In this document: positions 3,127-12,427 of the stretch, one piece after another
Position numbering within the stretch: position 1 is the stretch's first letter
Layout: every line of letters starts with the position of its first letter
NCBI RefSeq assembly: GCF_041248615.1
Contig: NZ_CP158426.1
Reading direction: 5' to 3' (one strand)
Source of the DNA: Escherichia coli
GTDB lineage: Bacteria > Pseudomonadota > Gammaproteobacteria > Enterobacterales > Enterobacteriaceae
DNA: 64,000 nt
Position numbers and translations under genes: made by a program
The notes under the pieces: generated by a model
What the model saw: only the letters and a program-made list of their open reading frames with translations
Told to the model about the DNA's origin: nothing
Databases searched by the model: none

Positions 3127-4320
3127 TTACTTGCTTTTGCAGCAGCGCCAGATAAATACAGTCACCATGCTAAATAATACAGCGGCAAATAATGCCATCA
3201 CAATCAGTGCTATTGCGACACCTGTTTTCGACACCAATGGTACCAACAACGCGCAAAGCCCATAGCCAAGTGTGTGACTGCAAGCGAGCCAGCCCGCGCC
3301 TGCGCCGTCGGCCAGCTTATCATTCAGTAAAAGTTGATAAGCGGGGGTTGCCAGAGCAGCTCCAAATGACAGCACTGCACAGCCTAGGTAAAACAACCAT
3401 AGCTGTTCAGCGAGCATGATAGCCAGACCACTACTCATCAACACCCCGGCACTCAGGAGCAGAGCCACTGGAGTCAGGCGCTGTGGACGGAGTACCACGA
3501 ACTGCGCGATAAGCGCAGCTATTGCGGACAGCCCCAACAACCACGCTACCTGTTGGCTAATAGTGGTGGTATCAGTGGCGAACTGGCGAGTAAGGGCTGG
3601 AGAAAGTCCAAGCTGCATCATGCTCATTGCCGCAGCCAGTAACATTGCGCAAAGCAGATAAGGCAGGAAATCCCGCTTCAGGCTGACGCTCTTGCGCTCC
3701 GGTGTGGGCTGTGGTGGTGTGCCGGGCAACCGCAGAAGCATCACCAGTGCCAGCGCTGGCGCTGCCATCAGCATCCACACTGGCGCCAGAGGGTGAATGA
3801 CCAACATTGCCGCCGCGCACAGCGGCCCGAATAGCCTGCCGCAGCTCAGGCCGGAGCTGATGGTTGCCAGAGCGGCCATGCGATTCCCATCTCCCGCTCT
3901 CTGCAATGCCCAGACCTGACAGGCTGGCACCATTGCTGACACGGTCAGACCGTAGACGATCCGGGCGATGATTAATATTCCCAACCCCACCGCTTTTGTT
4001 ACGGCACCGGTAGCCATCAGCACGCTTCCCAGCCCAAGCAGGGTAAAGCTTACGCCATATCCTCCCAGAGCCCACAGCACCACAGTCTTACTGCCAGTAA
4101 GGGAAATTTGCTTTCCCCACCATGGGGAAGATGGCAGAAACAGCATTGAGCCCAGCATCAGCAGGGCAGCCCATACAGACAGACTCAGATTTGTCTGTAT
4201 GACCAGAACAGGGAGTACAACCAGCAGACCGTTCTGTCCGATACCGAGAAGACCGGCACTGAACGCCAGTGGCCAGCAGGACAGGGTTTTTTGGGGCGTA
4301 TCTTCGATCTTAGATGACAT
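3127..4320 (-). CDS. shiF: MFS transporter ShiF-like, divergent from iucA
   Basis: 397-aa polytopic membrane ORF immediately upstream of and divergent from iucA. Confidence 0.8.
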   Translation of the reverse strand: MSSKIEDTPQKTLSCWPLAFSAGLLGIGQNGLLVVLPVLVIQTNLSLSVWAALLMLGSMLFLPSSPWWGKQISLTGSKTVVLWALGGYGVSFTLLGLGSVLMATGAVTKAVGLGILIIARIVYGLTVSAMVPACQVWALQRAGDGNRMAALATISSGLSCGRLFGPLCAAAMLVIHPLAPVWMLMAAPALALVMLLRLPGTPPQPTPERKSVSLKRDFLPYLLCAMLLAAAMSMMQLGLSPALTRQFATDTTTISQQVAWLLGLSAIAALIAQFVVLRPQRLTPVALLLSAGVLMSSGLAIMLAEQLWLFYLGCAVLSFGAALATPAYQLLLNDKLADGAGAGWLACSHTLGYGLCALLVPLVSKTGVAIALIVMALFAAVLFSMVTVFIWRCCKSK

Positions 4321-4394
4321 TGTAATGTTTCAACACCATGTATTAATTGTGTTTATTTGTAAAATTAATTTTTCTGACAATAACATTTCTCATT

Positions 4395-4413
4395 GATAAT
4401 GATAATCATTATT
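4395..4413. promoter_or_regulatory. Fur box in shiF-iucA intergenic region (gataatgataatcattatt)
   Basis: Near-perfect match to Fur consensus GATAATGATAATCATTATC ~45 bp upstream of iucA start. Confidence 0.85.
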
Positions 4414-10144: not shown

Positions 10145-10225
10145 GGAAAACGCAGCCGGAGGCTGCTTCTTTAACTCGCTACACAGCATCTTTGGGCTGA
10201 TTTTTTCCGCCCGTGTGGAGGAATA

Positions 10226-12427
10226 ATGATGATAAGCAAAAAGTATACGCTTTGGGCTCTCAACCCACTGCTTCTTACCATGATGGCGCCAGCAGTCGCT
10301 CAACAAACCGATGATGAAACGTTCGTGGTGTCTGCCAACCGCAGCAATCGCACCGTAGCGGAGATGGCACAAACCACCTGGGTTATCGAAAACGCCGAAC
10401 TGGAACAGCAGATTCAGGGCGGCAAAGAGCTTAAGGACGCACTGGCTCAGCTGATCCCTGGCCTTGACGTCAGCAGCCGGAGCCGCACCAACTACGGTAT
10501 GAATGTGCGTGGCCGCCCGCTGGTCGTGCTGGTTGACGGCGTGCGTCTCAACTCTTCACGTACCGACAGCCGACAACTGGACTCTATAGATCCTTTTAAT
10601 ATCGACCATATTGAAGTGATCTCCGGTGCGACGTCCCTGTATGGCGGCGGCAGTACCGGTGGCCTGATCAACATCGTGAGCAAAAAAGGCCAGCCGGAAA
10701 CCATGAAGGAGTTTGAGGCTGGCACCAAAAGTGGCTTTAGCAGCAGTAAAGATCACGATGAACGCATTGCCGGAGCTGTCTCCGGCGGAAATGAGCATAT
10801 CTCCGGACGTCTTTCCGTGGCATATCAGAAATTTGGCGGCTGGTTTGACGGTAACGGCGATGCCACCCTGCTTGATAACACCCAGACCGGCCTGCAGTAC
10901 TCCGATCGGCTGGACATCATGGGAACTGGAACGTTGAACATCGATGAATCCCGGCAGCTTCAGTTGATCACACAGTACTATAAAAGCCAGGGCGACGACG
11001 ATTACGGGCTTAATCTCGGGAAAGGCTTCTCTGCCATCAGAGGGACCAGCACGCCCTTCGTCAGTAACGGGCTGAATTCCGACCGTATTCCCGGCACTGA
11101 GCGGCATTTGATCAGCCTGCAGTACTCTGACAGCGCTTTCCTGGGACAGGAGCTGGTCGGTCAGGTTTACTACCGCGATGAGTCGTTGCGATTCTACCCG
11201 TTCCCGACGGTAAATGCGAACAAACAGGTGACGGCTTTCTCTTCGTCACAGCAGGACACCGACCAGTACGGCATGAAACTGACTCTGAACAGCAAACCGA
11301 TGGACGGCTGGCAAATCACCTGGGGGCTGGATGCTGATCATGAGCGCTTTACCTCCAACCAGATGTTCTTCGACCTGGCTCAAGCAAGCGCTTCCGGAGG
11401 GCTGAACAACAAGAAGATTTACACCACCGGGCGCTATCCGTCGTATGACATCACCAACCTGGCGGTCTTCCTGCAATCAGGCTATGACATCAATAATCTC
11501 TTTACCCTCAACGGTGGCGTACGCTATCAGTACACTGAAAACAAGATTGATGATTTCATCGGCTACGCGCAGCAACGGCAGATTGCCGCCGGGAAGGCTA
11601 TATCCGCCGACGCCATTCCTGGCGGCTCAGTCGATTACGACAACTTCCTGTTCAACGCTGGTCTGCTGATGCATATCACCGAACGCCAGCAGGCATGGCT
11701 CAACTTCTCCCAGGGCGTGGAGCTGCCGGACCCGGGTAAATACTATGGTCGCGGCATCTATGGTGCTGCAGTGAACGGCCATCTTCCTCTAACAAAGAGT
11801 GTGAACGTCAGCGACAGCAAGCTGGAAGGCGTGAAAGTCGATTCTTATGAGCTGGGCTGGCGCTTTACTGGCAATAATCTGCGCACCCAAATCGCGGCCT
11901 ACTATTCGATTTCTGATAAGAGCGTGGTGGCGAATAAAGATCTGACCATCAGTGTGGTGGACGACAAACGCCGTATTTACGGCGTGGAAGGTGCGGTGGA
12001 CTACCTGATTCCTGATACTGACTGGAGTACCGGAGTGAACTTCAACGTGCTGAAAACTGAGTCGAAAGTGAACGGTACCTGGCAGAAATACGATGTGAAG
12101 ACAGCAAGCCCATCAAAAGCGACAGCCTACATTGGCTGGGCACCGGACCCGTGGAGTCTGCGAGTGCAGAGCACCACCTCCTTTGACGTGAGCGACGCGC
12201 AGGGCTACAAGGTCGATGGCTATACCATCGTCGATTTGCTTGGCAGTTATCAGCTTCCGGTGGGTACACTCAGCTTCAGCATTGAAAACCTCTTCGACCG
12301 TGACTACACCACTGTCTGGGGGCAGCGTGCGCCACTGTACTACAGCCCGGGTTACGGCCCTGCTTCACTGTACGGCTACAAAGGCAGGGGCCGCACCTTT
12401 GGTCTGAGTTACTCAGTATTATTCTGA
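10226..12427 (+). CDS. iutA: Ferric aerobactin TonB-dependent outer-membrane receptor IutA
   Basis: 733-aa ORF with signal peptide, TonB-box-like ETFVVSA and C-terminal aromatic residue; follows iucD. Confidence 0.93.
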   Translation: MMISKKYTLWALNPLLLTMMAPAVAQQTDDETFVVSANRSNRTVAEMAQTTWVIENAELEQQIQGGKELKDALAQLIPGLDVSSRSRTNYGMNVRGRPLVVLVDGVRLNSSRTDSRQLDSIDPFNIDHIEVISGATSLYGGGSTGGLINIVSKKGQPETMKEFEAGTKSGFSSSKDHDERIAGAVSGGNEHISGRLSVAYQKFGGWFDGNGDATLLDNTQTGLQYSDRLDIMGTGTLNIDESRQLQLITQYYKSQGDDDYGLNLGKGFSAIRGTSTPFVSNGLNSDRIPGTERHLISLQYSDSAFLGQELVGQVYYRDESLRFYPFPTVNANKQVTAFSSSQQDTDQYGMKLTLNSKPMDGWQITWGLDADHERFTSNQMFFDLAQASASGGLNNKKIYTTGRYPSYDITNLAVFLQSGYDINNLFTLNGGVRYQYTENKIDDFIGYAQQRQIAAGKAISADAIPGGSVDYDNFLFNAGLLMHITERQQAWLNFSQGVELPDPGKYYGRGIYGAAVNGHLPLTKSVNVSDSKLEGVKVDSYELGWRFTGNNLRTQIAAYYSISDKSVVANKDLTISVVDDKRRIYGVEGAVDYLIPDTDWSTGVNFNVLKTESKVNGTWQKYDVKTASPSKATAYIGWAPDPWSLRVQSTTSFDVSDAQGYKVDGYTIVDLLGSYQLPVGTLSFSIENLFDRDYTTVWGQRAPLYYSPGYGPASLYGYKGRGRTFGLSYSVLF

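Follow-up and report, generated by a model that had tools for sequence, protein, structure and literature searches.

An aerobactin locus with a near-perfect Fur box and a short iucD allele on an Escherichia coli chromosome

Known aerobactin systems and gene content of the locus

Among the siderophores that contribute to virulence in extraintestinal pathogenic Escherichia coli (ExPEC), avian pathogenic E. coli (APEC) and hypervirulent Klebsiella, aerobactin is a major one, and the aerobactin promoter serves as a textbook Fur operator. The system is known from pColV-K30 and other ColV plasmids, from chromosomal islands such as SHI-2 of Shigella and that of uropathogenic E. coli (UPEC) CFT073, and from the iuc1 plasmids of hypervirulent Klebsiella pneumoniae (hvKp). 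The 64,000 nucleotides (nt) of E. coli contig NZ_CP158426.1 (assembly GCF_041248615.1) analysed here, called the window in what follows, carried a shiF-iucABCD-iutA locus of this kind. With high confidence, it is read as a standard Fur-repressed aerobactin siderophore locus in a chromosomal pathogenicity island riddled with insertion sequences (IS), with the start of iucA at position 4456 and a working iucD.

Published work has demonstrated Fur binding and iron-dependent repression of the ColV-K30 and CFT073 loci, and in CFT073 also direct Fur control of both iucABCD-iutA and shiF. The published model of the iucA promoter P1 places two Fur-binding sites inside the promoter, over its -35 and -10 hexamers (PMC3788343), and the Fur footprint at iucA was described as unusually long and clustered, with 13 predicted sites (Chen 2007; PMC2189734).

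Over its first 16 kb, the window matched the chromosome of E. coli NRZ14408 at 100% identity (NZ_LT599825.1, from 2,403,672). Gene calls were those made on that chromosome by the Prokaryotic Genome Annotation Pipeline (PGAP) of RefSeq, and the open reading frames (ORFs) were confirmed in the window. A 9.3-kb segment (3119-12461) recurred at 98.7-98.9% identity as the aerobactin module on about 1,490 plasmids, most of which were of the E. coli ColV type.

Two synthetases of the IucA/IucC family for nonribosomal peptide synthetase-independent siderophores were encoded on the plus strand, by iucA (4456-6180; 574 amino acids; WP_000602863.1; Pfam IucA_IucC at 2.9e-46 plus FhuF) and by iucC (7128-8870; 580 amino acids; called iucC by PGAP and related to SbnF/IucC-type synthetases). 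The same strand encoded the N6-hydroxylysine acetyltransferase IucB (6181-7128; 315 amino acids; Pfam Acetyltransf_8 at 7e-53; PGAP iucB), the lysine N6-monooxygenase IucD (8867-10144; 425 amino acids; Pfam Lys_Orn_oxgnase at 1.6e-112 over residues 4-333) and, colinear at the 3' side, the TonB-dependent ferric-aerobactin receptor IutA (10226-12427; 733 amino acids; TIGR01783; PGAP iutA). IutA scored 625 bits against the TonB-siderophore model TIGR01783 (cut-off 223.5), and IucA matched the PDB entry 5JM7, 'Aerobactin synthase IucA', with an E value of 0. In the NCBIfam profile search, that generic TonB-siderophore model alone reached its cut-off and no iuc-specific model did; the gene identities rest on Pfam, PDB and DNA identity.

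Gene order, Pfam domains, near-identity to ColV plasmids and the 5JM7 match all agreed with the aerobactin locus that an initial annotation had read from the sequence, and all the coordinates given there were confirmed. Its description of the locus as intact held for five of the genes, which encode intact RefSeq proteins. The exception was iucD, a short allele of 425 codons flagged by PGAP, though one that is prevalent and almost certainly the functional form. Since functional loci of ColV plasmids and hvKp are nearly identical to it, the window locus would be expected to support the production and uptake of aerobactin.

The gene divergent from iucA (minus strand, 3127-4320; 397 amino acids; Pfam MFS_1 at 2e-19; intact PGAP protein WP_000095521.1) encoded a major facilitator superfamily (MFS) transporter and lay 135 bp away from iucA, across a shared regulatory region (4321-4455, 135 bp between both genes, 77% A+T). 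Compared in steps of 300 bp, it was 89-100% identical to the gene for an MFS transporter that precedes iucA on ColV plasmid pCERC14, and is the shiF of the literature. There shiF is described upstream of iucA; on pS88 it is iron-induced and said to have its Fur box in common with iucA (PMC3438092). An auxiliary role in aerobactin secretion is reported, and deletion of shiF halved secreted aerobactin (PMC6918656). In the window, a promoter-like site on the minus strand, by consensus match only, ran across the Fur box (ATAACA at 4427-4422, TATCAT at 4404-4399), and such a site would explain the co-regulation of shiF and iucA, which is probable here by analogy with near-identical loci.

The stops and starts within the operon had been described as overlapping, which was true of two of the four junctions: iucB and iucC overlapped by 1 nt (TAATG) and iucC and iucD by 4 nt (ATGA), while iucA and iucB abutted without overlap (TGAATG) and iucD and iutA were 81 nt apart. 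These junctions fit translational coupling inside one operon. Tandem ATG codons were present at the beginning of iutA (10226 and 10229). PGAP takes 10226, but in Pantoea, as in the E. coli lineage with a 445-residue IucD, an ATG was aligned with 10229 alone, which also had the more typical spacing of 7 nt from GGAGG. The PGAP start of iutA may thus be one codon off, a difference that would lie inside the signal peptide and leave the mature protein unaffected.

Fur box, promoter and start codon of iucA

The Fur box GATAATGATAATCATTATT (4395-4413) matched the 19-bp consensus GATAATGATAATCATTATC at 18 of 19 positions and was the sole site with three or fewer mismatches in the 64 kb, for an expectation of 0 in 100 shuffles. 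It overlapped the -35 hexamer of the main iucA promoter, a P1-like element on the plus strand (4393-4421) made up of TTGATA (4393-4398), a 17-nt spacer and the TG-extended -10 hexamer CATAAT (4416-4421). This arrangement was the best sigma-70 match of the region (10 of 12 positions), where five sites were found, compared with 0.9 expected in shuffles, and where promoter-like sites were present on both strands. More GATAAT-like hexamers covered the -10 hexamer; seven of them, with at most one mismatch, were counted in 4321-4455, against about 1.5 expected from the rate across the window. The near-perfect Fur box of the initial annotation was recovered, unique in the window and overlapping the promoter as in the P1 model. 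Its position was conserved in Klebsiella, Enterobacter, Pantoea and Yersinia. Fur would be expected to bind this operator as it does in the near-identical loci of the literature, and the iucA transcript is predicted from the -10 hexamer to start near 4428.

The window differed from the ColV plasmids at position 4403, where it had T instead of G (GATAATGAT vs GATAATGAG), so that 4401-4403 read GAT vs GAG. The T lifted the consensus match to 18/19 from the 17/19 of the ColV version. The exact 65-bp promoter allele of the window was present in 49 of 1,838 matching E. coli records. The same change presumably also removes a HinfI site (GAATC) of the classical Fur protection assays.

The ORF of iucA, which ends at 6180, had its longest start at TTG 4393 (MIMIIIID) and its first in-frame ATG at 4399. 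As had been noticed in the initial annotation, a protein begun at 4393 would run through the Fur operator: TTG 4393 was the first codon of the -35 hexamer, ATG 4399 lay within the operator, and the 21-codon upstream extension (plus strand, 4393-4455), which appeared spurious, overlapped both elements. The predicted transcript start near 4428 is downstream of both codons, and neither would therefore be usable as a start codon. No purine-rich Shine-Dalgarno motif was found in the sequence 5' of TTG 4393 or ATG 4399. An AGGAG (plus strand, 4441-4445), likewise reported earlier and read here as the Shine-Dalgarno sequence of iucA, was located 10 nt before ATG 4456.

Comparison with other IucA sequences converged on the same codon. 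The crystallised Klebsiella IucA (5JM7) aligned Met to Met with ATG 4456, the codon that RefSeq also takes as the start, and an equivalent ATG was conserved in all eight lineages examined, which came from E. coli, E. fergusonii, two groups of Klebsiella plasmids, Enterobacter, Pantoea and Yersinia; the orthologous loci were located by way of IucD homologues. The motif TGTTTGAYTATGA was conserved along with the ATG across those lineages, and all of them had nine variable residues and then DVAAQCFLN. The 21 upstream codons encoded unrelated peptides across the lineages compared. An in-frame stop interrupted their frame in K. pneumoniae pMR0617aac; in Y. pestis, where the distance between box and ATG was 63 nt and not 61, the frame was out of register and likewise closed by a stop. 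The putative extension in the window, MIMIIIIDIIVIILLCRSCLI, would be extremely hydrophobic, with a grand average of hydropathy of +2.9. Together with the RefSeq start and the 5JM7 alignment, this conservation supports ATG 4456 as the very probable start of iucA, as first proposed, with the 21 upstream codons left untranslated.

The exact IucA of 574 amino acids was found on at least 1000 contigs, the 595-residue form on 20 and the 593-residue form on four, while another 593-residue allele, from APEC O1, was found on 45 contigs. Over-extended entries of 593 or 595 residues persist in GenBank and UniRef (ABD51743.1 from APEC O1; A0A2K3TKF2). They start inside the promoter and are better read as proteins of 574 amino acids.

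Taken together with the literature on near-identical loci, from which the enzyme and transport activities are assigned, these features would be consistent with the following mechanism. Under plentiful iron, iron-loaded Fur would occupy the operator at 4395-4413 and the adjacent GATAAT-like hexamers, covering the -35 (4393-4398) and -10 (4416-4421) hexamers and occluding RNA polymerase. Under scarce iron, transcription of iucA would begin near 4428, and ribosomes would bind the AGGAG (4441-4445) and start translation from ATG 4456 to give the IucA of 574 amino acids. The genes iucB, iucC and iucD would be translated via their abutting or overlapping junctions, and iutA after its 81-nt spacer. 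IucD would then hydroxylate lysine at N6, IucB would acetylate the product, and IucA and IucC would condense two acetylated hydroxylysine units with citrate. The divergent shiF gene is probably transcribed from a promoter that overlaps this Fur box as well; its product would boost secretion, and IutA would re-import ferric aerobactin.

The short iucD allele, the ISL3 flanks and alternative readings

The iucD of the window encoded 425 amino acids ending in QWRSGT. Most IucD orthologues have 440-445 amino acids and end in QWRSGSREKPQPEAASLTRYTASLG or similar. Alignment to alleles of 444 and 445 amino acids displayed a change of AGCCGG to ACCTAG, which creates a stop after Thr425, and the deletion of 1 nt, one C of the run that follows. 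The relic of the ancestral tail (plus strand, 10145-10200) was out of frame and would be untranslated. PGAP flagged iucD as 'frameshifted' over 8867-10200, extending it to 10200 because the derived stop and the 1-nt deletion put the old tail out of frame.

The same QWRSGT end at residue 425 was accompanied by the same PGAP flag in an ST131 chromosome, in ColV plasmid p3PCN033 and in an hvKp iuc1 plasmid, and the exact protein of 425 amino acids was found on at least 1000 contigs. Among E. coli matches to the iucD-iutA junction, 1,546 of 1,914 (81%) belonged to identity classes of the short allele, a share estimated from those classes, three examples of which were verified; a minority E. coli lineage retained an IucD of 445 amino acids. 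The missing tail of about 20 residues was poorly conserved and naturally absent in Serratia homologues. Solved N-hydroxylase structures aligned to residues 5-413/421 of IucD, and the missing tail lies beyond them. The biochemically characterised IucD of pColV-K30 itself has 425 amino acids, and hvKp strains with iuc1 make large amounts of aerobactin. It is very likely, judging from these alignments, that the short IucD keeps the whole monooxygenase fold and is functional, the pseudogene flag being an artefact of comparison with longer relatives.

At the start of the same gene, pairing of the small RNA (sRNA) RyhB over the iucD start codon has been predicted for CFT073 in the literature. RNAduplex applied to window positions 8837-8897 and a RyhB sequence returned an unrealistically long duplex that did not outdo shuffled sequences, 10.7% of which were as good.

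Decayed genes for ISL3-family transposases were found on both sides of the locus, both on the minus strand. The left one (1683-2867) was called 'frameshifted' by PGAP and contained an ORF (1945-2700) matching Pfam DDE_Tnp_ISL3 at 2.3e-17. The right one (12492-13708), called 'frameshifted; internal stop', matched DDE_Tnp_ISL3 and Zn_ribbon_ISL3. A whole DDE_Tnp_ISL3 transposase was encoded by neither copy, both being broken by frameshifts or internal stops. The two relics were 31% identical in amino acids over 107 residues, and the repeat search of the window found no DNA repeat linking them; they appear to be unrelated elements rather than copies of one. The ISL3-family debris that had been reported on both sides is thus present and decayed, as two different elements and not as a matched pair.

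Several points weigh against the reading of the locus as a standard, working aerobactin system. PGAP labels iucD 'frameshifted'; the transcript start of this strain is predicted from the -10 hexamer; the spacing of 10 nt from AGGAG to ATG 4456 is rather long; the sequence 3' of iutA yielded no convincing intrinsic terminator; and the frame upstream of ATG 4456 was open in six of the eight lineages examined. Translation of IucA from TTG 4393 or ATG 4399, giving 595 or 593 amino acids with a hydrophobic N-terminal extension, would draw on that open frame, and some GenBank records, such as that of APEC O1 (ABD51743.1), annotate the longer protein. An open frame does not discriminate between starts: the A+T-rich Fur-box sequence simply has no stop codons in this frame in most lineages, and its openness was rejected as evidence for a long IucA. 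Both upstream codons sit inside the -35 hexamer and the Fur operator, so that the main transcript should exclude them; a Shine-Dalgarno motif is missing 5' of either, the extension is unconserved and stopped in pMR0617aac and Y. pestis, and both the crystallised protein and current RefSeq begin at the downstream Met. A long IucA is barely credible on this evidence. The flag on iucD, the greater length of most orthologues and the derived stop with its 1-nt deletion could likewise be taken to mean that iucD is a frameshifted pseudogene and the locus not intact, leaving the strain unable to hydroxylate lysine or make aerobactin. This is very unlikely, given an identical end in ColV, ST131 and hvKp iuc1 loci that PGAP flags alike, the roughly 81% of E. 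coli junction matches in this class, and a tail that is poorly conserved, absent from Serratia and beyond the structure-aligned region (413-421).

The ISL3 relics could also be seen as the termini of a composite transposon by which the aerobactin module was mobilised as a whole: they have the same orientation on both sides and lie no more than 260 bp from shiF and 65 bp from iutA, and at least 51 E. coli chromosomes show this arrangement. Against this stand their low identity, the frameshifts in both and the flanking of the same module (3119-12461) by IS26 and IS1 on plasmids, and the chromosomal recurrence is compatible with vertical or whole-island inheritance. With no direct repeat linking the relics, a composite transposon was rejected as highly improbable. 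The Fur-repressed locus with its start at 4456 and a functional short IucD is retained as the preferred reading. The iucD allele is prevalent and probably functional, and its flag appears to be a false pseudogene call that PGAP makes systematically; in the window as in many other genomes, the flag should not be taken as loss of aerobactin synthesis.

Further repeats bracketed the iuc region. Imperfect inverted arms resembling IS256/IS1414 were found at 1-614 and 15189-15802 (81% complementary), and nested within them a 28-nt inverted pair at 1634-1661 and 14754-14781 (93% complementary). The rest of the window was an IS-riddled pathogenicity island with sitABCD, sodC, ibrB-like genes, iha and remnants of integrative-conjugative elements, and it also carried a pseudogene of a group II intron reverse transcriptase. 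The features sitABCD, sodC, the intron pseudogene, iha and the integrative-conjugative-element remnants were located at 16340-19810, 23172-23696, 26269-27777 and 50824-52911.

Comparison with known aerobactin loci

Ancestral enterobacterial aerobactin loci are represented by the chromosomal loci of Enterobacter and Pantoea ananatis, which share with the window an MFS gene divergent from iucABCD-iutA, an IucA of 574 and an IucB of 315 amino acids, and a Fur box about 61 nt before the ATG. They differ by an IucD of 444 amino acids with the full tail and by a gene with SIP/FAD_binding_9 domains, resembling a ferric-siderophore reductase, after the MFS gene (locus coordinates 350-1240 and 342-1232). 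The window is without this gene and has ISL3 debris in its place, about 260 bp after shiF (2868-3126). In the Y. pestis locus, no iucA gene was called (2303-4309 of its extracted region) despite a start region and a Fur-like box. The iucA gene is pseudogenised in Y. pestis, with which this locus is consistent.

The hvKp iuc1 plasmid locus has the same six genes, an equivalent IucA start, the same Fur-box position and an identical IucD end at residue 425. It differs by an intergenic region of 156 bp vs 135 bp, a different shiF start and a patchwork of similarity, with 74-94% identity from shiF to about 9964 and then 98-99.7% over the last 150 bp or so of iucD and iutA. This mosaic, with its junction at about 9965-9990, implies that an iucD-3'/iutA block carrying the derived stop was probably exchanged horizontally. 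A broader and unlikely proposal is that the iucD-3' stop, the 81-nt spacer and iutA moved horizontally as one block between the otherwise 75-90% diverged lineages of E. coli ColV/ST131 type and hvKp iuc1. The block now dominates among clinical lineages, which could mean that the truncation and the spacer are not neutral but bring an advantage, such as a change in iucD/iutA expression or in control by sRNA. If this were true, RefSeq would be mislabelling a working virulence gene as a pseudogene in well over 1,000 complete genomes.

The islands of Shigella (SHI-2) and UPEC CFT073 resemble the window, according to the literature, in having shiF divergent from iucA with a shared Fur box, and, compared by description, in being IS-rich islands with other iron systems (sitABCD and iha in the window). 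Agreement was close with pColV-K30 and modern ColV/ColBM plasmids, which have the gene order, sizes, junctions, promoter architecture and 425-residue IucD of the window; ColV plasmid pCERC14 was 100% identical over 3996-6994. ColV plasmids differ in their flanks, made of IS1 and IS26, whereas the window copy is chromosomal with ISL3 relics, and in a Fur box with GAG (17/19) instead of GAT (18/19) at 4401-4403. The known picture of aerobactin is left unchanged by the window locus, which adds annotation notes and the mosaic pattern to it; the locus is an already known one and matches throughout the classical aerobactin system that ColV plasmids and chromosomal islands carry.

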